NCBI RefSeq assembly: GCF_003966335.1
Contig: NZ_CP034549.1
Location: forward strand, 480,001-512,000
DNA length: 32,000 nt
Direction of reading: 5' to 3'
Origin: Nonlabens ponticola
GTDB lineage: Bacteria > Bacteroidota > Bacteroidia > Flavobacteriales > Flavobacteriaceae
The translations under genes and the position numbers were made by a program. Of this stretch, positions 10,386 to 25,584 are shown one piece after another; the stretch's first letter is position 1; each line of letters begins with the position of its first letter. The notes under the pieces were generated by a model. That model was not told the origin of the DNA. It did not search any database and worked only from the letters and a program-made list of their open reading frames with translations.

Positions 10386-10982
10386 TCAATCAACTTTTAT
10401 GAGTGTCATTTCCTTAGGGATCCTCAACCTTTGAGATGCCTCTGGGTCATCATTAAGATTGAGAAAACCTACAATCATAGTTTTCATTCTTAGCACCTTT
10501 TGCTCAACCAGTCCAGATGATGTCAAGATCTCTCTAGTACTGAGTATAACATTTGAGTCATAGCTTGTCCACTTACTATTCACCGGATCTTCAAAGATAA
10601 AGTTAACAGGTTTTCCTGGCCTAAAATACATAGAGGAAAAATGATAGACATCATCTGGAGAGCCTTGTGTTATTGCTTGATTCAAAGTATTGATGATCTC
10701 AACACCATTTTTCACATATTTGTAGTTCCCCAATAACATGTCTGCTTTGCCGTACTCACCACCCTTTTCGTGCGCCTCGACTCTTTCCAAAACTAAGGTG
10801 AATTCTTCATTGCTTTGTTCAAATTTATAAGTGCCTTCAAAAACCAACATATCGTTATTGATATCCTTGATATACAAATTGGATTGATCATCTATGGATA
10901 AATAATTATAATCAATTGGTACAATTTGAGAATAGCCTAGACATGCACCTATAAAAAATATCAAGTTTACATGTAGTTTCAT
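10386..10982 (-). CDS. hypothetical secreted protein (paralog A of a tandem pair)
   Basis: 198-aa ORF with a signal peptide (MKLHVNLIFFIGACLGYSQ). It is AT-rich. It shares Y[IV]KDIN, a spacing-conserved core and a C-terminal M.L..V[DE] with the next ORF. Confidence 0.6.
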   Translation of the reverse strand: MKLHVNLIFFIGACLGYSQIVPIDYNYLSIDDQSNLYIKDINNDMLVFEGTYKFEQSNEEFTLVLERVEAHEKGGEYGKADMLLGNYKYVKNGVEIINTLNQAITQGSPDDVYHFSSMYFRPGKPVNFIFEDPVNSKWTSYDSNVILSTREILTSSGLVEQKVLRMKTMIVGFLNLNDDPEASQRLRIPKEMTLIKVD

Positions 10983-11154
10983 CTTGCTATAAATATTTTG
11001 ATGCAGTTTGAGATGTTGCGATTATTTAATGAGAAATTTCTGCTACTAAATTTAGAGCGGAACAAGACTTAATAAGACCACCGAAGAAATCAGATTAATC
11101 ATTTTTCCAGAAGTTTAATGGTCTTTAAGTCATTCAATAATAATGTTTTTCTAA

Positions 11155-11745
11155 CTACTCTACTCGTGTTAAAATCATATTGTCTGGATACAATTGATTG
11201 AAACCACTAGGACAATCTTCTTGAGTTGGCTGGCTTGAGCCATATTGTTGAAAAAATAATTTTAGAGTGTTATCATCGATTTTGGTAATAAAGACATTAC
11301 CGTAAATGTAGCACTCCGAGCTTTTTAACTGAAAAAAATCATAAAACCAATTACCATTACGTCCTTGTGTTATTCCATGACCTCTAAGACGTTTACTTCT
11401 AATAGAGACATTGAATGTGTCTTCTATAACTTCATCAGTATTCAAGTCAATAATTTTATGCTGCTTGCCTAAAATGTCCATGGCAAAGTCAGCGGAATTC
11501 TCTCTGTATTTCTCAATATTTAATTCATAACTCTTACCGTTTGCGATTCCAGACCATTTACCAACTAAAGGATCTAGAATATCATTAATGTCTTTGACGT
11601 AATCTAGACTCGAAGGCAATTCGCAATTTTCCTCATCTAATATGCATGCACGATGAGCCTCTAACGACATAATCGTTTGGCAGCTCGCTTGACCAACGCA
11701 AAGAAATAGTATCATCAATAAGTGACTCTTTCTCAATTCAACCAT
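11155..11745 (-). CDS. hypothetical secreted protein (paralog B of a tandem pair)
   Basis: 196-aa ORF with a signal peptide (LLMILFLCVGQASCQ) and the motif DYVKDINDIL. It ends MILTRVE, compared with MTLIKVD in paralog A. Confidence 0.6.
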   Translation of the reverse strand: MVELRKSHLLMILFLCVGQASCQTIMSLEAHRACILDEENCELPSSLDYVKDINDILDPLVGKWSGIANGKSYELNIEKYRENSADFAMDILGKQHKIIDLNTDEVIEDTFNVSIRSKRLRGHGITQGRNGNWFYDFFQLKSSECYIYGNVFITKIDDNTLKLFFQQYGSSQPTQEDCPSGFNQLYPDNMILTRVE

Positions 11746-18466: not shown

Positions 18467-21337
18467 ATGAAAAAATCACTACTTCTTATTGTATTCCTAA
18501 GCAGCGTCATGAGCTTTGCTCAAACAGACGCCCAACAAGTGCTGCAAGGCATCGCGCAGATGGAAGACATGGCGGCCAACTCGCCTTATAAAAATTTAAG
18601 CTTCAAAAACATAGGCCCGACCATCATGTCTGGTCGTGTGGTTGATGTAGATGTCAATCCGCAAAATCCTACTGAAATGCTCGTGGCATATGCCAGCGGT
18701 GGTTTATGGCATACCAAAAATAACGGTACCAGCTTTGAACCTATCATGGACAATGCAGGCACCATCAATCTAGGCGATATCGCCGTAGATTGGAACGATC
18801 GTGTGATCTGGGCAGGAACTGGCGAGAACAATTCCAGCCGCAGCAGCTATGCTGGCATCGGCCTGTTGAAATCTACCGATTGGGGTAAAACCTGGAGCGA
18901 GCCCATGCTGCCAGCATCGCATCACATAGGTCGCATTTTGATTGATCCCAACAACGCAGACCATGTAGTGGTAGCCGTGACAGGTCCTTTGTATACAAAT
19001 AGTGATCATCGTGGCATATTTACGACCATAGATGGTGGTACATCGTGGAACAAAACTTTATACGCGACTGATATGGCTGGGTTTATCGATCTAGCTGCAG
19101 CACCAGAGGATTTCAATACGCTTTTTGCTGCTAGTTGGGAAAAGGACCGCAAGGCATGGAATTTTGACGGCGATGGCGAGGCAAGTGCCATTTATAAAAG
19201 CACCGATGGCGGCCAAAACTGGACTAAGATCACAACAGAAGCCAGCGGTTTCCCGACAGGTAGTGGTGTTGGTCGCATAGGTCTAGCGGTTTATGATGCC
19301 AATACGATTTATGCCATTCATGACTCGCAATTCCGTAGGGAGAAGGAAGATGGTGGTAATTCTGCTTTCGCGAAAGCGGAATCCGACTCAGACCTATCAA
19401 AAGACGACTTTAAATCCATGTCTCGCAACGAGTTTATGGCACTGGAAAACGACAAGCTGAACAAGTTCTTGAAGCAAAACGGTTTCCAAGAAAAATACCG
19501 TGCAGAGAATGTCAAAAACATGGTAAGTAATGGCGCAGCACAACCAGCTGATCTGGCGTTATACCTAGAAGATGCCAACTCGCAATTGTTTGACACACCA
19601 GTTAAGGGTGCCGAATTATACCTATCAAAAGATGGCGGTAAAACCTGGACCAAAACACATGAAGGTCAAATAGACGATGTGTTTTATAGCTATGGATATT
19701 ATTTCGCTCAAGTGCGCGTAGATCCTAGCGATGTCAATAAAGTTTATGTGATGGGCGTGCCTATCATCAAGTCTGACGATGGTGGTAAAAATTGGACCAG
19801 TATTTCTAGAGAAAACGTGCATGCAGATCATCACGCGTTGTGGATCAATCCAAAGATGAGCGGTCATTTGATCAATGGTAATGACGGTGGTTTGAACATC
19901 TCTTATGACGATGGCGAGACCTGGATCAAGAACAACTCACCTGCGGTAGGTCAGTTTTATGCCATTAATTATGATATGGAAGAACCGTATAACGTTTACG
20001 GTGGTTTGCAAGACAATGGCGTTTGGGTAGCGGCGCATAACGCTCGAGAAAATCGTGCGTGGCACCAGCAAGGTCAATATCCATGGGAATCCATTATGGG
20101 TGGTGATGGAATGCAAGTGCAAATTGACAATCGTGATAGTGATGTGGTTTATACAGGATTCCAATTCGGTAACTACTACCGCATCAATCGGGAAACGGGC
20201 GATAGAACATACATCCAGCCAAAACATGAGTTAGGCGAGTCGCCTTATCGATTCAACTGGCAAACGCCTATTTTGTTGAGCAGTCACAATCAGGACATTC
20301 TTTATCTAGGCGGTAACAAACTGCATAGATCCATGAATCAAGGAAACGATTGGACAGCCATCTCGCCAGACTTGACGCAAGGCGGCAAAAAAGGAAACGT
20401 GGCTTACGGTACGTTGACCTCTATCAGCGAGTCGCCGTTTCAATTTGGAATGATCATCACAGGATCTGATGATGGATTGGTACAATTGACCAAAGATGGT
20501 GGCGCAACCTGGTCGCAGCTGAATGGCGGCTGGCCAGCAGATCTTTGGGTAAGCCGTGTGGTAGCATCACAACACGACCAAAACACACTTTACGTAACAC
20601 TTAATGGTTACCGCAATGACGACTTTACACCTTATGTATATATGAGTAAAGATGCTGGTAAGACTTGGCAAAATATAGGCAGCTCATTGCCTGTATCGCC
20701 TGTCAATGTAATTATCGAGCATCCTACAGATAAAGACATGGTTTTTGTTGGTACTGACAATGCCGTTTATGTAGCAACGCAACCAGGCGCCTGGAGCTTG
20801 CTGAATGCCGACATGCCACCAGTGGCAGTGCATGATTTGAAAATACAGCCAAAAGCTAATGATCTATTAGTGGGAACACATGGTCGTTCAATTTATCTAG
20901 CCAATCTAGATGCTATGGGCTTACCAAAAGCCGCTTCTAGCGAAAACGCGGTGGGTTACTACAGCCAGAAATTGAAGTTGGCGCCTGTTGAAGGGTTTAG
21001 AGCATCAAATCGTTATGGAAGCAAAGGCTTCATGTGGAGTGATGGCCCAGAACCTAGTGTGGACATCAGCTACTTCTCGCCTACTGCTGGTAAAACAATG
21101 CTGACGATCACCAACGAGGACGGCAAAGTGGTCAATGAAATGGAACTGGAATCTGACAACGGATTGAACTTTTATACCTACAACGGCACAGTATCAGAAA
21201 AAGGCAGAAAGAAGTACAAAAAAGACATGCAACCTAAAGTCGCTGACAATGGTCGTTATTACCTGCCAAAAGGCAAATACACATTGACTCTTAAGAACAG
21301 CGCTGGTAGTGCTAGTGAGAAGTTTGAGGTGGAGTGA
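18467..21337 (+). CDS. large secreted Asp-box/BNR-repeat beta-propeller protein (sortilin/VPS10-like)
   Basis: 956-aa ORF with a signal peptide and at least 8 Asp-box motifs (STDWGKTW, TIDGGTSW, STDGGQNW, SKDGGKTW, SDDGGKNW, YDDGETW, TKDGGATW, SKDAGKTW). Confidence 0.85.
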   Translation: MKKSLLLIVFLSSVMSFAQTDAQQVLQGIAQMEDMAANSPYKNLSFKNIGPTIMSGRVVDVDVNPQNPTEMLVAYASGGLWHTKNNGTSFEPIMDNAGTINLGDIAVDWNDRVIWAGTGENNSSRSSYAGIGLLKSTDWGKTWSEPMLPASHHIGRILIDPNNADHVVVAVTGPLYTNSDHRGIFTTIDGGTSWNKTLYATDMAGFIDLAAAPEDFNTLFAASWEKDRKAWNFDGDGEASAIYKSTDGGQNWTKITTEASGFPTGSGVGRIGLAVYDANTIYAIHDSQFRREKEDGGNSAFAKAESDSDLSKDDFKSMSRNEFMALENDKLNKFLKQNGFQEKYRAENVKNMVSNGAAQPADLALYLEDANSQLFDTPVKGAELYLSKDGGKTWTKTHEGQIDDVFYSYGYYFAQVRVDPSDVNKVYVMGVPIIKSDDGGKNWTSISRENVHADHHALWINPKMSGHLINGNDGGLNISYDDGETWIKNNSPAVGQFYAINYDMEEPYNVYGGLQDNGVWVAAHNARENRAWHQQGQYPWESIMGGDGMQVQIDNRDSDVVYTGFQFGNYYRINRETGDRTYIQPKHELGESPYRFNWQTPILLSSHNQDILYLGGNKLHRSMNQGNDWTAISPDLTQGGKKGNVAYGTLTSISESPFQFGMIITGSDDGLVQLTKDGGATWSQLNGGWPADLWVSRVVASQHDQNTLYVTLNGYRNDDFTPYVYMSKDAGKTWQNIGSSLPVSPVNVIIEHPTDKDMVFVGTDNAVYVATQPGAWSLLNADMPPVAVHDLKIQPKANDLLVGTHGRSIYLANLDAMGLPKAASSENAVGYYSQKLKLAPVEGFRASNRYGSKGFMWSDGPEPSVDISYFSPTAGKTMLTITNEDGKVVNEMELESDNGLNFYTYNGTVSEKGRKKYKKDMQPKVADNGRYYLPKGKYTLTLKNSAGSASEKFEVE
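19364..19377. repeat. GCTTTCGCGAAAGC palindromic element inside the Asp-box protein CDS (encodes AFAKA)
   Basis: Exact 14-mer. The flanks extend it to ATTCTGCTTTCGCGAAAGCGGAAT, a 24-bp palindrome with one mismatched pair. Confidence 0.9.
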
Positions 21338-21390
21338 GTATCAGATTAAATCGCGGAAGGAACAGCTCTATTTGCATCTAATTTAAGCCC

Positions 21391-22797
21391 ATGAAAGAAG
21401 AGTTACAAATAATTCAAAAATTTCTAAGTGAATTTTCAAAATTAGTATCAACTCAAGCGGATCTAAGTTTCCCCATAGAATTTTATACGGAGTATAAAGG
21501 CCAAATGAAGGTTGTTGATGCTGCATTAATTAAAAACAAAGAGGTACTTGCCATTTTTGAGTTTAAGGCAGGTGTTGTTAAAATCAATCCACAAGATTTT
21601 TGGGACGCAATACCACCAATAAATATCAACTATAAATTCTTAGTTCTTTCTAATGGTTTGGATCACTATGTATTAAATGTTTTTACAAATGCACTTCTTA
21701 GCTTTGATAATTCTGAAGATTTATTAACCCATTTATTAGAACTACCCACTGTAGAAGAAATCAATGAAACAAAGGAAAGTATAGCTTCGATCATCGAAAA
21801 AACAGTCATGGAATTTGAAAAAGAATTTGTTCATCATGATCATCCTCTGTATGAAAAATTGCCTGATTTAGTTGCTCATTTCAAAAAGGAAAAAATTGAA
21901 AGTTCGCTACGATTCGATAAAAACGGTCAGTTCTATCACCTTACTAAAGACATAAGGGATTTAACCAATTTTGAAAATCAATTTTTTCAATTGATCACCG
22001 AGGAATTAGAGGAGTCTGAAACAATCTATAGATACACTACACTTGAAACAATGTTTTCGACTATCAATCACAAGAGTATTCGATTAAATGGTATTCCTGG
22101 AATGAATGATCTTTCTGAAGTTGATTACGTTCAATCGTATCGTGACAAAGGTTTTAAATTGTCTGACTCAGCTATAGACATTGACGAATTAAATAAAAGA
22201 TTTATATTATGTAGTTCATCTTTGGAAGACGACTTGATGCAATGGAGATTGTACGGAGATGATTCTAAAGGAGCCTGTCTAGTTTTCAAGATTAAAAATA
22301 CCTCGAGAATTCCTGGACTGCAATTACGAAAGATTTGTTACGGAATCAAAGTAAATGGAGAAAACTATCATCCTGAAATTGAATTGATAAACAAGATAAT
22401 TAGCGACGTTAAGAAGCAAAAAAAAGAATCCTTTCAATTTAGAGCGTTATCAATTTGGAAGCATTTTTTCAAGTCTTACGAATATCAGCCAGAAAAAGAA
22501 GTGAGATTGTTATTAATTCTGGCTCGTGATAAAACTATTAAAGGAGAAAGTATACTTGAAGAGAAACTTCATTCAATACAAAAAATGTGGTGCTTAACAA
22601 GCTCTCATAAAATCGTTAATCCGTATATCATAATCAATGTTGATGACGATTTATTGCCGATAGAGCTAACCGAGATCGTTCTTGGTAACAAGAGCCCTGA
22701 ACCAGTTACAAATAAGAAGCAGATTGAACAATTACTATATGAAAACAAGTTAGATAACGTTTCAGTAAACATTTCTAAAATTGATAGCTATCGCTGA
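21391..22797 (+). CDS. PD-(D/E)xK-like N-terminal domain fused to a DUF2971 domain (candidate defence-island protein A)
   Basis: 468-aa ORF that is strongly AT-rich. The N-terminus carries VVD43AALIKNKEVLAIFE57FK59 (D...ExK, HsdR-N-like). The DUF2971-like motifs are IYRYTTLETMF...IRLNGIPGMNDLSE (from nt 22024), ILCSSSLEDDLMQWRLYGDDSKGACLVF (nt ~22210-22290) and YQPEKEVRLLL (22492..22506). Confidence 0.7.
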   Translation: MKEELQIIQKFLSEFSKLVSTQADLSFPIEFYTEYKGQMKVVDAALIKNKEVLAIFEFKAGVVKINPQDFWDAIPPININYKFLVLSNGLDHYVLNVFTNALLSFDNSEDLLTHLLELPTVEEINETKESIASIIEKTVMEFEKEFVHHDHPLYEKLPDLVAHFKKEKIESSLRFDKNGQFYHLTKDIRDLTNFENQFFQLITEELEESETIYRYTTLETMFSTINHKSIRLNGIPGMNDLSEVDYVQSYRDKGFKLSDSAIDIDELNKRFILCSSSLEDDLMQWRLYGDDSKGACLVFKIKNTSRIPGLQLRKICYGIKVNGENYHPEIELINKIISDVKKQKKESFQFRALSIWKHFFKSYEYQPEKEVRLLLILARDKTIKGESILEEKLHSIQKMWCLTSSHKIVNPYIIINVDDDLLPIELTEIVLGNKSPEPVTNKKQIEQLLYENKLDNVSVNISKIDSYR

Positions 22798-22866
22798 AAG
22801 CATGTTTTATCAATTTTTTTGTCTTCCAAGAATTGTATTTTGGCCTTAATAACATGCATTTTTAAT

Positions 22867-22874
22867 TATGTTTG
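22867..22874 (+). promoter_or_regulatory. candidate -7 promoter box TATGTTTG upstream of island gene B
   Basis: Matches TAnnTTTG, 55 nt upstream of the ATG at 22929 in the 131-nt A-B spacer. This is a motif match only. Confidence 0.3.
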
Positions 22875-22928
22875 ATTTACCAATTTTTTTCTAAAGGCGT
22901 AAGCCCTGTTTCTATTAAAGGATAAAAT

Positions 22929-24887
22929 ATGCCAAAAATTATTGATGTTGGAGTTGAGCAAGATCATATTGAATCCTTGACTAAGGCGAGCGGAATTACG
23001 GCTATTTCAGAGCTAATATGGAATTCTCTCGATGCAGACGCCACTAAGGTAAAAATAGAATACATTAAAAATAAACTAGGAGGCTTTGAAGAACTGGTAG
23101 TTGAGGACAATGGATTGGGAATTGAATATTCAAAAGCGCAGGATGTCTTTGGTCGATTAGGAGGTTCAGAAAAGAAGATTCAAACGAGTAGCCCAAATGG
23201 ACGCCAGTATCATGGTAAAGAAGGAAAAGGCAGATACAAATCACTGGCATTAGGTGATTTAGTAAAATTCACAAGCGTTTATAAAAATGGTGAGTCTCTA
23301 AAAGAGTTTACTGTAACATTTGACAGAAATAATTTATCACACTCGAACTTCAGCGATTTGAAAACGCTTCCGAAAGGTAGTGTGGAAACAGGTTTCAAAG
23401 TTGAAATAAAAAACATTAACCAAGAAAACGTAATTCAAGCAGTAGATCCGAAGTTCAGGAGAGAAATAGAACAGAAATTCACATCATATTGGATAAACTA
23501 TAATGATTTTGAAATTTATTTCAACGGTAATAAATTAGAATTTGAGTCTTTAATCAAAAACACAGAGGAAAAAGAATTCTTCGTTCAAAATGGTGAATTA
23601 TCATACAGATTCTCCATAAAAGTAATCGAATGGAGCTTTGACATAAGGAAGAGAACTTATTTATGCAATACCAAAGGTATTCCATTTAAAGAATTGAACC
23701 TTGGTATTCGTTCGACTATTCCTATTTCGATTTTCATTCAGTCAGTTTATATTGAAAAATTACATAGAGAAAACCTCATAGATTTAGAAAACTTTGATGA
23801 CATACTCCAAGGAGCTTATGTAGAAGCAAAGAAATTCGCTAGAGAATATGTCAGAAATAGACTTCATTTATATTCCGGAGAATTTATTAAGGAACTGAAA
23901 ACGAAGGGGCTTTATCCATATAAGGAGAATGCAGATTCTATAATTGAAGAAAGTAAAAGACAGGTTTTTGATATAGTTGCGCTTCAGGTAAATGAATATC
24001 TACCCGAATTTGAAAGTCAAAATGATAAGAGCAAAAAATTTACCCTTTCTCTAATTAAGGAAGCTTTGGAAAAAGATTCTCATTCATTACAAAAGATTTT
24101 GACTGAGGTTATTGAATTACCAGATGAAAAAAGAGAAGAATTAGTCGAAATTCTAGAAGAAACATCTTTGTCAAGTGTAATTGATACAATGACAGAAATT
24201 AAAAATAGATTGAGATTTATCAATGGTCTTGAGGAACTAATTTATAATAAAGACCTAAACAAGAATATTTTAGAGCGAAAGCATCTTCATAAAATTTTGG
24301 TGAACGAAACATGGCTATTCGGCGATGAATATACATATGGCGTTGATGACGTTACGCTTAAGAATGTTTTAAAAGCATACTTGAAAAGTTTAGGTAGATC
24401 TGATTTTGAAGAGACTATAAGTAATGACTCGAATAATGATCTGCAAATCATACCTGACGTATGCTTATGGAGGCAATTCCCACAAGGTTCGCCTGGTCAT
24501 AAAACAAATTTGATTATTGAATTGAAAAAGCCAACAAAAGATGCTGGTGTTGAAGAACTGATGCAGATAAAGCTTTATGCCGCTAGAATATCCAACGATA
24601 AGAGATTTCCTAAAGAAAAAACCAAATGGAAATTTCTTTTGATTACTAAAGACATTAAGCCAGACATTGAACCTGAATTAGAACAAACTGGGAGGAAATA
24701 TGGTCATGTTGTTTCAACGGATTTATATGACGTATTCGTTTTAACATGGGGACATATCTTGACCGAGGCAAAAACAAGATATGAATATGTAAAAGATAAA
24801 TTGAATTTGAACTTAATGGATAACCAACATAATTTGGATTATCTCAAATCAAGATACAATGAATATTTACCGAATGAATTGAATTGA
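22929..24887 (+). CDS. GHKL (HATPase_c_3/MORC-like) ATPase fused to a C-terminal Shedu/DUF4263-like PD-(D/E)xK nuclease domain (candidate defence-island protein B)
   Basis: 652-aa ORF, AT-rich. The Bergerat-fold motifs are E28LIWNSLDADA (23010..23042), D60NGLG (23106..23120), and FGRLGGSEK / GKEGKGRYKS. The C-terminus reads ERKHLHKILVNETWLFGDEY...IIPD510VCLW...LIIE531LK533KP...Q546IKLY550 (D 24456, ExK 24519..24527). Confidence 0.7.
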   Translation: MPKIIDVGVEQDHIESLTKASGITAISELIWNSLDADATKVKIEYIKNKLGGFEELVVEDNGLGIEYSKAQDVFGRLGGSEKKIQTSSPNGRQYHGKEGKGRYKSLALGDLVKFTSVYKNGESLKEFTVTFDRNNLSHSNFSDLKTLPKGSVETGFKVEIKNINQENVIQAVDPKFRREIEQKFTSYWINYNDFEIYFNGNKLEFESLIKNTEEKEFFVQNGELSYRFSIKVIEWSFDIRKRTYLCNTKGIPFKELNLGIRSTIPISIFIQSVYIEKLHRENLIDLENFDDILQGAYVEAKKFAREYVRNRLHLYSGEFIKELKTKGLYPYKENADSIIEESKRQVFDIVALQVNEYLPEFESQNDKSKKFTLSLIKEALEKDSHSLQKILTEVIELPDEKREELVEILEETSLSSVIDTMTEIKNRLRFINGLEELIYNKDLNKNILERKHLHKILVNETWLFGDEYTYGVDDVTLKNVLKAYLKSLGRSDFEETISNDSNNDLQIIPDVCLWRQFPQGSPGHKTNLIIELKKPTKDAGVEELMQIKLYAARISNDKRFPKEKTKWKFLLITKDIKPDIEPELEQTGRKYGHVVSTDLYDVFVLTWGHILTEAKTRYEYVKDKLNLNLMDNQHNLDYLKSRYNEYLPNELN

Positions 24888-25053
24888 AGAAAAGTTAGGA
24901 TAAAAGTTATTTAATGCGAATTCAAAAATGATTACACAGAAAATCAGACTGTATAAAAATAAAATACTCACAACCCAACCTCAATCCTATTTTTATGTGA
25001 ACGCTTCTAGCTAATAGCTGTAAGTCAGCGATATTGCTGTAAAATCAAATATC

Positions 25054-25584
25054 ATGTCTTGGATTTACAGCGCAGATGATCCACTATGGCAAACCATAGT
25101 GTTAACCTTCATCCTTTTTCTTACCATCGTATTGCTTACCAGGATTATCGGCTTGCGGTCTTTTGCGAAGTTTACGGCCTACGATTTTGCATTTACCATC
25201 GCGATAGGTAGCATCGTCGCTGGCGTGCTCACTTCAAGTACAACATTTGTGCATGGTGCGGTAGCGGTGGCCAGCTTGCTGGGTTTGACCTTTATATTCT
25301 CGCAGTTGCAGCGCAAATATCCATGGCTTGAATCGGTTATTTCAAACAAGCCATTGATGCTTATGGACGGCAATCAAATACTTGACGATAATCTAGCGCA
25401 TGCACGTATCGAGCGTTCTCAACTTATGGCAAAACTGCGTGAGGCAAACGTGCTCAACTTTGACCAGGTGCGTGCAGTGGTTCTTGAATCTACTGGCGAC
25501 ATTTCGGTTTTACACACTTCTGATAAAGCAGATGAGGTCAAACTTGCTAACGAGATCTTGGATGGCGTCCGCAAGACTGTATAG
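25054..25584 (+). CDS. DUF421 (YetF-like) membrane protein
   Basis: 176-aa ORF with N-terminal TM helices that include the RIIGLRSFAKFTAYDFAFTIAIGS motif, and a C-terminal soluble domain. Confidence 0.8.
   Translation: MSWIYSADDPLWQTIVLTFILFLTIVLLTRIIGLRSFAKFTAYDFAFTIAIGSIVAGVLTSSTTFVHGAVAVASLLGLTFIFSQLQRKYPWLESVISNKPLMLMDGNQILDDNLAHARIERSQLMAKLREANVLNFDQVRAVVLESTGDISVLHTSDKADEVKLANEILDGVRKTV

Follow-up and report, generated by a model that had tools for sequence, protein, structure and literature searches.

A putative single-gene anti-phage protein of Nonlabens ponticola with a restriction-endonuclease-like domain fused to a DUF2971/ADP-ribosyltransferase-like domain

In the genome of Nonlabens ponticola, a gene encoding a protein with nuclease-like and DUF2971 motifs (gene A) is directly followed by a gene encoding a GHKL ATPase (gene B). 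The locus raised the question of whether the two genes belong to a single conflict system, in which DUF2971 would serve a GHKL ATPase-nuclease as sensor or effector, or whether A acts by itself, and which of its two domains would then be the effector. The window analysed was a 32,000-nt stretch of contig NZ_CP034549.1 (positions 480,001 to 512,000); all positions below are those of the window.

The low-GC islet and its two genes

Genes A and B were the only genes of an islet with a GC content of ~31-36%, compared with ~43-48% in its flanks (Table 1). The islet was bordered on one side by a Sortilin/BNR-repeat gene (18467-21337) and on the other by a YetF/DUF421 gene (25054-25584), which is followed by sdhC. 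No direct or inverted flanking repeats, integrase or tRNA signal was found at the islet borders, and no R-M genes were found within 32 kb of gene A. The ORF call gave ATG as the start codon of A. The intergenic gaps beside A were 53 nt and 131 nt, which are too small for a small antitoxin gene in the window.

Table 1. Features of the A-B locus in the window
Feature	Position	Strand	Evidence
Low-GC islet, genes A and B only	21338..25053	.	Composition profile, ORFs, Pfam of flanking genes
Gene A, 468 aa: REase-like N-domain, helical linker, DUF2971/ART-like C-domain	21391..22797	+	ORF, Pfam, AF2, Foldseek
N-domain of A, REase-like (HSDR_N_2-like), residues ~24-105	21460..21705	+	Pfam, Foldseek, AF2 strands, relatives
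Triad codon D43	21517-21519	+	
Triad codon E57	21559-21561	+	
Triad codon K59	21565-21567	+	
Helical linker of A, residues ~108-202, ending in conserved F-E195-N-x-F-F helix	21712..21996	+	AF2 secondary structure
C-domain of A, DUF2971 / putative DarT-like ART fold, residues ~209-468	22015..22794	+	Pfam, PADLOC PDC-S31, phrog_1762, domain-only model, conservation
C-domain motif R214-Y215	22030-22035	+	
C-domain motif N239-E243	22105-22119	+	
C-domain motif R286-Y288	22246-22254	+	
C-domain motif E368-R372	22492-22506	+	
A-B spacer, 131 nt, TAnnTTTG box and imperfect direct repeat	22798..22928	+	Sequence
Gene B, 652 aa, independent neighbour of A	22929..24887	+	Pfam, comparative contexts
GHKL ATPase of B, residues 24-159	22998-23405	+	HATPase_c_3 72 bits (Pfam)
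Candidate PD-(D/E)xK and QxxxY motif of B, D510...Y550	24456-24578	+	Motif conservation

The box TATGTTTG occupied 22867-22874 of the A-B spacer, which also contained an imperfect 18-nt direct repeat (22803-22820 and 22873-22890). In the initial annotation, the TAnnTTTG box was taken as a sign that A and B may be expressed separately. Both the spacer and the box were present, but TAnnTTTG had 25 occurrences in the window where 32 +/- 5 would be expected, and since the motif was not above chance the box is no evidence for a promoter. Sigma-70-like and terminator-like sites were at shuffle level, with no terminator separating the two genes, and the RNA fold of the spacer was not significant (z = -1.19). 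As the spacer has no terminator or strong RNA structure, A and B may be co-transcribed here; this, together with their adjoining, co-oriented position in a common low-GC islet, is what speaks for a two-gene system.

Comparative genome analysis argued against it. When B was searched by tblastn in 80 A-family loci, no relative of B adjoined a relative of A (0/80), and the sole match was a weak GHKL match on the opposite strand, ~6 kb away, in locus L054. On the side of B, no DUF2971 gene was found beside its relatives in five independent contexts (identity of 74-90% in four of them and 67% in the fifth). The best relative of A was 55% identical, against 90% for the best relative of B. DNA similarity to the other B loci ran from ~12 nt before the ATG of B to its stop codon, and the flanks of B had nothing in common with those loci. 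Judged by comparative genomics, the two-gene reading is largely refuted, and it was rejected as very improbable. The comparative data show that A and B are functionally independent and that their pairing is peculiar to the window locus. B would be a separate, highly mobile GHKL-ATPase/nuclease-motif gene that arrived by chance in the same islet. This independence keeps a false two-gene system out of defence catalogues.

B had also been described as an ATPase-nuclease. Its ATPase part was confirmed by Pfam (Table 1), while its nuclease part is a candidate assignment made solely from the C-terminal motif D510...E531-x-K533...Q546-x3-Y550, which did not vary even in a phage copy with 30% identity. 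The C-terminal half of B had no Pfam match (E <= 10) and no PDB sequence match. Assignment of B to Shedu/DUF4263 was rejected as too weak, the PADLOC profile SduA giving just E 0.039 over residues 373-468, outside the D...ExK motif.

Domain architecture of protein A

The initial annotation described A as a HsdR-N-like PD-(D/E)xK module fused to DUF2971, and Pfam, AF2 and Foldseek showed this fusion to be real. Residues 40-59 (KVVDAALIKNKEVLAIFEFK) contain the signature D43-x13-E57-x-K59, which lies inside a restriction-endonuclease-like (REase-like) fold. Pfam HSDR_N_2 matched residues 27-97 with 23.2 bits (E 7.6e-5), narrowly below its gathering cutoff of 25. The AF2 model of full-length A (pLDDT 89.8, pTM 0.86) matched DrdV (7lo5, E 6e-4), an HsdR fragment (3h1t, E 1.6e-3) and DUF820 (3ot2 and 3ijm) in Foldseek, each with a probability of 1.0. 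In this model the N-domain had strands at residues 29-35, 38-48 and 51-58, the second carrying D43 and the third having E57/K59 at its end; D...(D/E)xK is thus found at the canonical places on the core strands of the fold. HSDR_N_2 and HSDR_N matched 17 and 6 of 41 relatives, respectively, and 39 and 13 of 104 relatives at E <= 0.01 (best relatives E 2e-10). The Pfam match, the HSDR_N matches of the relatives and the REase folds in Foldseek together counter a chance origin of so short a motif. No QxxxY motif after the triad was conserved in the A family.

In the helical linker, E195 was kept in 113/120 relatives. The sole full-length phmmer match, yeast Stu1 (E 9e-4), lay over this linker; it was rejected, as it looks like a low-complexity/helical artefact.

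For the C-domain, Pfam DUF2971 (PF11185) passed its cutoff of 22 (28.5 bits, E 4.1e-6, residues 284-373, model 1-89 of 89). DUF2971 also matched 40/41 and 100/104 relatives. The DUF2971 motifs named in the initial annotation were all found in A, and they hardly vary among its relatives: Y-R214-Y215, M238-N-D-x-x-E243, W285-R-L-Y288, G294 and E368-K-E370-V-R372. Across 120 close and 104 distant relatives, the polar residues N239, D240, R286, Y288, E368-x-E370 and R372 were 98-100% conserved, and Y288, E368-x-E370 and R372 were 100% conserved. The invariant Y467-R468 are the final two residues of A, directly before the stop codon. The C-domain was further matched by phrog_1762 (E 5e-16) and by the PADLOC PDC-S31 HMMs (E 6.2e-6 and 4.4e-5), the latter weakly and partially (21-24 bits).

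ADP-ribosyltransferase (ART) domains carry H or R on strand 1 as motif I, Y or S-x-S as motif II, and a catalytic E, often in ExE, as motif III. In the AF2 model, R214 lay on strand 211-216, [S/C]274-x-[S/T]276 ended strand 270-276, and E368-x-E370 led into strand 370-377. Position 214 was R in 119/120 relatives, K in some distant relatives, and H in short relatives without the N-domain (~316-340 aa). R214 is therefore a candidate for the canonical motif I position, and R214, Y288 and E368/E370 can be mapped, by sequence and secondary structure only, as candidates for motifs I-III.

In the full-length Foldseek search, cholera toxin A was matched at E 1.5 only; the ART domain was invisible there because the N-domain dominated the matches, and hence a domain-only model was used. 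The domain-only model of the C-domain had a pLDDT of 84.8, and its six best PDB matches were all DarT (7omv, E 7.4e-4, probability 0.99; also 7omx, 7omy, 7omw and M. tuberculosis DarT 7yk3). These DarT matches ranged from E 7.4e-4 to 0.029 with probabilities of 0.75-0.99, but their TM was 0.31-0.47 and the rmsd was large. Below DarT were weaker ART-fold matches, KptA/Tpt1 and TreTu. The predicted likeness to DarT is thus modest and at the level of the fold. Pfam DarT/DUF4433-type and ART families matched neither A (E <= 1) nor its relatives (E <= 0.01), the C-domain profile had 0 matches among PDB sequences at E <= 10, and in the viral structure library A had just weak matches to uncharacterised entries.

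The same fold and motif evidence would also serve another reading, in which the C-domain is not a transferase acting on DNA or protein but an NAD+ glycohydrolase that uses up NAD+ upon infection. NAD+ depletion is a common outcome of abortive infection, and the lack of a dedicated antitoxin or of a gene for a reversing hydrolase would suit a transferase and a tightly gated NADase equally well. Against this, the closest folds, DarT and KptA/Tpt1, are DNA/RNA-acting ART enzymes, and a nucleic-acid substrate for the C-domain is suggested by its fusion to a REase fold of the DNA-binding type. In addition, the DUF2971-only protein Aristaios specifically affects phage transcription (PMC13064643). 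A NADase was considered unlikely.

The N-domain could also be taken as the killing effector, cleaving DNA, with DUF2971 as a non-catalytic sensor or regulatory domain. D43, E57 and K59 are intact in A, the triad was intact in 9/11 relatives embedded in type I R-M loci, and the fold of the N-domain matches real nuclease domains. However, the intact triad was found in 71/120 close (59%) and 44/104 distant (42%) relatives, with the lysine lost most often, and these counts are minimum values, as alignment is uncertain at such divergence; the triad is gone in ~40-58% of relatives, against the near invariance of the polar residues of the C-domain. The RADAR-linked and the short (~320 aa) relatives have no N-domain and keep the core of the C-domain, and DUF2971 by itself suffices for defence in Aristaios (PMC11381338). 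Killing by the N-domain was considered unlikely. The decay of the triad in about half of the relatives suggests a mainly non-catalytic role of the N-domain, while that of the window's A, with its triad intact, could be a true effector here.

Genomic contexts of the A family

The architecture of a REase-like domain plus DUF2971 was widespread, with 463 representative clusters at E <= 1e-10. A had one match in the plasmid collection, a DUF2971 gene of a Segatella plasmid with 28% identity over the C-domain, and no match in the phage collection.

Co-oriented type I R-M genes were present within 7 kb in 11/80 A-family loci and RdrB in 6/80. In L007, the order was hsdM-hsdS-[A relative]-hsdR, with an overlap of 4 nt with hsdS and a gap of 4 nt before hsdR; in L037, the RADAR-linked A relative lay downstream of rdrB and overlapped its 3' end. 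Avs4 was located 58 nt downstream of the A relative of Draconibacterium (52% identical). PADLOC matches were found in 7/10 sampled neighbours of A relatives, namely GajA (562 bits), type IV REase (747 bits), PDC-M60A, SngA, HEC-06, a PD-T4-6-like kinase and PDC-M54A. A-family genes sit in defence islands with type I R-M operons, RADAR, Avs4, Gabija and type IV restriction. The proposed conflict-system context of DUF2971 was thereby borne out, but the expected association with GHKL genes was not, as the search with B had shown.

No family of neighbours of A relatives recurred in >9/77 loci. Among these 77 loci (ORFs >=80 aa) and in the gaps of the window, neither a DarG macrodomain nor a NADAR antitoxin was found as a recurrent neighbour. 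The closest relatives of A were solitary genes amid housekeeping genes.

This last context would also suit a role outside defence, as a secreted or injected ART toxin effector or as a housekeeping enzyme of DNA metabolism. About 18% of DUF2971 proteins were predicted as effectors (PMC12522546), and a secreted or injected toxin role has been proposed for some DUF2971 proteins of pathogens. Yet A had no secretion-associated domain in Pfam, and its patchy distribution, low GC and rapid divergence, the operonic embedding of relatives within R-M (type I) and RADAR loci, and the strong association of the family with defence islands all speak against such a role, which was considered very improbable.

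Proposed role of A and comparison with known systems

With moderate confidence, A is proposed to be a stand-alone, antitoxin-less anti-phage protein with an ART-like effector C-domain and an accessory REase-like N-domain, B being unrelated. A would be a self-contained single-gene defence of the abortive-infection type. Its DUF2971 C-domain, a putative ART-fold module whose nearest fold is that of DarT, a toxin that ADP-ribosylates DNA, would be the conserved catalytic or effector part, and would most likely use NAD+ to ADP-ribosylate nucleic acid when triggered by phage infection; alternatively, a protein of the machinery for transcription or replication may be the target. The N-domain, linked by helices, would be an accessory module for nucleic-acid binding, targeting or sensing, and in the window's A, with the D-ExK triad intact, it may also cut DNA. 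A would need no dedicated antitoxin and no obligatory partner.

A more specific and more tentative reading, to which a rather low probability is given, is that the A family represents 'restriction by ADP-ribosylation'. The C-domain would be an antitoxin-free DarT-like DNA ART, gated or targeted by its own, often catalytically decayed, REase-like domain that recognises invading DNA. The triad-keeping subset between hsdS and hsdR would be a PrrC-like back-up that fires when type I R-M is disabled.

To our knowledge, a single member of the DUF2971 family has been validated against phages, and a biochemical activity is known for none of its proteins. The family is very large and has been reported in ~6000 species (PMC12522546). 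The description of DUF2971 as a family without assigned function is nevertheless out of date, as it has been predicted to be ART-like, near DarT and AbiGi (PMC12522546), and Aristaios has been validated (PMC11381338, PMC13064643). The proposed stand-alone protein A lends itself to clean dissection as a single protein, with its predicted ART residues and its nuclease triad open to separate mutation, and its architecture recurs within operons of type I R-M and RADAR. Once its target and its silencing without an antitoxin are shown, the whole DUF2971 family would have a mechanism, and immunity by ADP-ribosylation of DNA or protein would reach beyond DarTG.

The N-domain of A resembled that of HsdR (HSDR_N/HSDR_N_2, PD-(D/E)xK) in its fold, in the triad on canonical strands and in the family-wide Pfam matches. 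In contrast to HsdR, the nuclease-like domain of A is isolated, without an SF2 motor, and its Pfam score is just under the cutoff. PrrC/RloC-type effectors are embedded in type I R-M operons (hsdM-hsdS-prrC-hsdR), and a subset of A relatives occupies the same slot between hsdS and hsdR. However, the PrrC/RloC effector is an anticodon nuclease, whereas A has an ART-like fold, and type I R-M linkage is limited to the 11/80 loci.

DarT, the toxin of DarTG, is an ssDNA thymidine/guanosine ADP-ribosyltransferase that acts against phages via DNA ADP-ribosylation, and was the best structural match of the C-domain of A. In the ART fold of DarT, a Glu is catalytic and an Arg is important for the reaction (PMC11543638). 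No sequence-profile relationship between DarT and A was detected by Pfam or by the C-domain profile against the PDB. The C-domain of A is longer (~260 aa vs ~210), contains insertions, and is extended at its C-terminus by a conserved stretch that closes with Y-R-COOH. Unlike DarT, A is fused to a REase-like domain, and whereas DarTG has a DarG macrodomain/NADAR antitoxin, A had no such neighbour in the 77 loci or the window gaps.

Aristaios, from the Lactococcus plasmid pUCCL641_199, is a 316-aa DUF2971-only protein. Experiments have validated it as an Abi-like system made up of one gene, and it interferes with phage transcription (PMC11381338, PMC13064643). AlphaFold models led to its prediction as an ADP-ribosyltransferase-like protein (PMC11381338), and its mechanism is listed as unknown (PMC13064643). 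Compared by description, A shares with Aristaios the DUF2971 (PF11185) core, the mobile/defence contexts, and probably the trait of a single gene without partner or antitoxin, supported here by the lack of a conserved neighbour. The PADLOC candidate PDC-S31 may likewise be related to A, given its weak, partial match to the C-domain. A (468 aa) differs from Aristaios by the addition of a REase-like N-domain of ~105 aa and a helical linker of ~95 aa, and its putative motif I residue is Arg, compared with His in the short relatives of Aristaios-like length. The combination of a REase-like domain with DUF2971 in A is best read as a new architectural variant of the known DUF2971 defence.

Domain architecture of A and conservation of its N-terminal domain

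Composition analysis showed that the stretch holding A, a two-domain protein, and its neighbour B, a GHKL ATPase, had 31–36% GC vs 43–48% GC in the flanks, where Pfam analysis placed a Sortilin/BNR-repeat gene upstream and a YetF/DUF421 gene and sdhC downstream. A second low-GC patch (33–35% GC), flanked by hemB (ALAD) and a CNNM/CBS gene, carried two ORFs, one with DUF6705 (198 aa) and one of 196 aa lacking annotation, and may likewise be a small acquired islet.

Coordinates of features in the window, in protein A and in loci holding A relatives
Feature	Location	Strand	Details
Second low-GC patch	window 10386–11745	-	
Gene A	window 21391–22797	+	ATG ORF, 468 aa
HSDR_N_2 in A	residues 27–97		E 7.6e-5, 23.2 bits, cutoff 25
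D43-x13-E57-x-K59 in A	residues 40–59		KVVDAALIKNKEVLAIFEFK
DUF2971 in A	residues 284–373		28.5 bits, cutoff 22
C-terminus of A	window 22774–22794		residues 462–468, S462...Y467-R468-COOH
Direct repeat, first copy	window 22803–22820		TGTTTTATCAATTTTTTT
TAnnTTTG box	window 22867–22874		
Direct repeat, second copy	window 22873–22890		TGATTTACCAATTTTTTT
Gene B	window 22929–24887	+	ORF, 652 aa
Type I R-M locus	L007, 6217–14138		A relative between hsdS and hsdR
RADAR-like locus (example)	L037, 4279–10750		A relative after RdrB
Avs4 locus	L088, 9465–14180		Draconibacterium orientale

The initial annotation had described A as a D-x13-E-x-K nuclease motif joined to DUF2971, and this was correct given the motif and the Pfam placements of HSDR_N_2 and DUF2971; the nuclease call for A alone was just below the curated Pfam threshold. 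Pfam analysis detected HSDR_N_2 and HSDR_N in 17 and 6 of the 41 close relatives and in 39 and 13 of the 104 distant family representatives. The AlphaFold2 model of A, with an input alignment of 41 relatives, was confident (pLDDT 89.8, pTM 0.86), and D43 on strand 38–48 and E57/K59 ending strand 51–58 occupied the canonical PD-(D/E)xK places. The top Foldseek PDB matches were all restriction-endonuclease-like (REase-like) folds with probability 1.0 [DrdV 7lo5 (E 6e-4); HsdR fragment 3h1t (E 1.6e-3); DUF820 3ot2; 3ijm]. From these matches and the detection of HSDR_N_2/HSDR_N across the family, the predicted REase-like fold of the N-domain was considered solid.

Among 120 relatives, D43 was kept in 108, E57 in 98 and K59 in 84. 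The full triad was intact in 71/120, and in at least 44/104 distant representatives; the second count is a minimum, since sequences this divergent align with uncertainty. Judged by these alignments, the nuclease catalytic triad is poorly kept.

The C-terminal DUF2971 domain

The premise that DUF2971 has no assigned function has been changed by published work. A 2025 survey of ADP-ribosyltransferase (ART) families classed it as a new ART-like family whose sequences resemble those of DarT, AbiGi and Tox-ART-HYD1; the histidine of motif I is poorly conserved, whereas a tyrosine is strictly kept and an ExE motif is present (PMC12522546). Aristaios, a 316-aa DUF2971-only protein with an ART-like AlphaFold model, was reported in 2024 as a single-gene abortive-infection-like system (PMC11381338); according to a later review it interferes with phage transcription by an unknown mechanism (PMC13064643).

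Residues 186–468 of A were modelled separately (pLDDT 84.8), and Foldseek analysis revealed that the six best PDB matches were all DarT [Thermus DarT 7omv (E 7.4e-4, probability 0.99); further, 7omx, 7omy, 7omw and M. tuberculosis DarT in 7yk3], followed by weak ART-fold matches to KptA/Tpt1 and TreTu. The TM-scores were modest (0.31–0.47) and no PDB sequence matched the profile of the C-domain; the likeness to DarT was at the fold level, without DarT family membership.

D240 and Y288 were 100% conserved, and K361, E368, E370 and R372 were kept in 118/118 aligned close relatives and 100% of the distant set. Conservation in the 120 relatives and the distant set was 119 and 97/104 (plus 7 K) for R214, 120 and 98/104 for Y215, 119 and 100% for N239, 120 and 102/104 for E243, and 120 and 103/104 for R286. 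This pattern fits an enzyme. That the enzyme is an NADase instead of a transferase was considered unlikely, with DarT and KptA/Tpt1, ART enzymes that act on DNA or RNA, as the closest folds.

Position 214 was Arg in the fused forms, Lys in some distant forms and His in relatives of ~316–340 aa lacking the N-domain (L042, L043, L046, L048, L054, L056). His in the short relatives is expected if position 214 is ART motif I (H or R); the alignment is consistent with this assignment and with the short relatives being Aristaios-length forms. The extreme C-terminus was ~97–98% conserved across the family and ended exactly at R468 in most relatives, which suggests a structural or autoinhibitory role for the free C-terminus.

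Relationship of A to gene B

The initial annotation had treated A and B as a pair that may nonetheless be expressed separately, given a TAnnTTTG box ahead of B in the 131-nt spacer. The TAnnTTTG box was present, but the motif was not above chance (25 occurrences in the window vs 32 ± 5 expected), and neither a terminator-like site nor significant RNA structure was found in the spacer. The spacer also contains an 18-nt imperfect direct repeat with copies 70 nt apart, the second of which abuts the box.

The closest relatives were 55% identical for A and 90% identical for B. When 80 loci of A relatives were fetched with 10-kb flanks and searched by tblastn with B, no adjacent B relative was found; the sole match was a 91-residue GHKL segment ~6 kb away on the opposite strand (L054). 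Five contexts of B relatives (67–90% identity) contained no DUF2971 gene: after a mer operon; in an integrase/TraG element adjoining a Gabija-like pair; beside a resolvase, an AIPR gene and a Type ISP restriction enzyme; in a TraG/RadC element; and beside an integrase and helicases. DNA similarity between the window and the other B loci ran from ~12 nt before the B ATG to the stop codon. On these comparisons the pairing was largely refuted and B is not a partner of A; despite the adjacency and common low GC of the two genes, a single A–B system is very improbable.

B matched the GHKL ATPase family (72 bits, Pfam) and, over its full length, phrog_6203. Relatives in Maribacter and other Bacteroidota were 88–90% identical at the protein level and had nothing but the ORF in common at the DNA level; those in the Pasteurella phages Pmp3 and Pmp14 (phrog_6203) were ~31% identical. 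The motif D510...E531-x-K533...Q546-x3-Y550 was invariant even in the 30%-identical Pasteurella phage copy. B-type genes (window copy; L081–L087, L092–L095) appeared highly mobile, with integrative elements, a mer operon, and Gabija or Type ISP genes as neighbours. Most simply, B is independent and mobile and a candidate for a single-gene defence or restriction-like function; as no specific PADLOC model exists for it, it would be an uncatalogued one.

Defence neighbourhoods and proposed role of A

Exhaustive HMMER search returned 760 representative A-family clusters at E ≤ 1e-3 (463 at E ≤ 1e-10), mostly 400–480 aa long, in which the N-terminal module (~160–220 aa) is divergent. Among neighbouring ORFs of at least 80 aa, no family was common to more than 9/77 loci, so neither a dedicated partner nor an antitoxin accompanies the A family. 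Neighbours that did recur were defence systems, which bore out the conflict-system context first proposed for the DUF2971 gene.

Type I restriction-modification (R-M) genes were co-oriented within 7 kb of the A relative in 11/80 loci, and the embedded relatives kept the D-E-K triad in 9/11. In L007, a type I MTase and then the specificity subunit preceded the A relative, and the type I REase followed; there was a 4-nt overlap between the hsdS stop and the start of the A relative, and hsdR began 4 nt downstream of the A relative. The same slot, with 4-nt overlaps or gaps, was occupied in L004, L017, L020, L027 and L029. In the EcoprrI locus, prrC lies in this hsdS–hsdR slot.

In five Bacteroidales-type MAG loci of gut or rumen origin (L033, L036, L037, L039, L041), the A relative directly followed an RdrB-like adenosine deaminase (overlapping it by 11 nt in L037), itself preceded by a large P-loop protein of ~900 aa; the DUF2971 gene looks like the third gene of a RADAR-like operon. 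RADAR-linked relatives had a different N-terminus in 6/6, and some reached 730–766 aa. In D. orientale, a full-length Avs4 (PADLOC 1664 bits) lay 58 nt downstream of a 52%-identical A relative in a compact defence islet, with resolvase and HTH genes close by. A further 7/10 hand-picked large neighbours matched PADLOC models (GajA, type IV REase, PDC-M60A, SngA, HEC-06, PD-T4-6-like kinase, PDC-M54A). Other close relatives were lone insertions amid housekeeping genes; given the recurring defence neighbours, a non-defence role was considered extremely unlikely.

The best-supported reading is that A is a stand-alone abortive-infection-type defence protein, in which the invariant DUF2971/ART-like domain would be the effector. 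The predicted folds, the conservation, the independence of A from B and the defence neighbourhoods are direct results of the analysis. As to chemistry, substrate and trigger, we infer that the reaction would probably be NAD+-dependent ADP-ribosylation, that nucleic acid is a plausible substrate because the fold resembles DarT and a DNA-binding-type domain is fused to it, and that the REase-like N-domain would serve in nucleic-acid binding, targeting or sensing. The N-domain may still cleave DNA in this protein, and the triad is retained in most type I-embedded relatives; with the triad poorly kept elsewhere and the DUF2971 residues nearly invariant, a nuclease effector regulated by DUF2971 is improbable. 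Both the ART-like nature of DUF2971 and its anti-phage role have already been published. Since the HsdR-N-like fusion, its frequent placement within type I R-M and RADAR operons, and the presence of His, Arg or Lys at the presumed motif I are described neither in the ART survey (PMC12522546) nor in the other papers found to mention DUF2971, A is regarded as a new architectural variant of this family.
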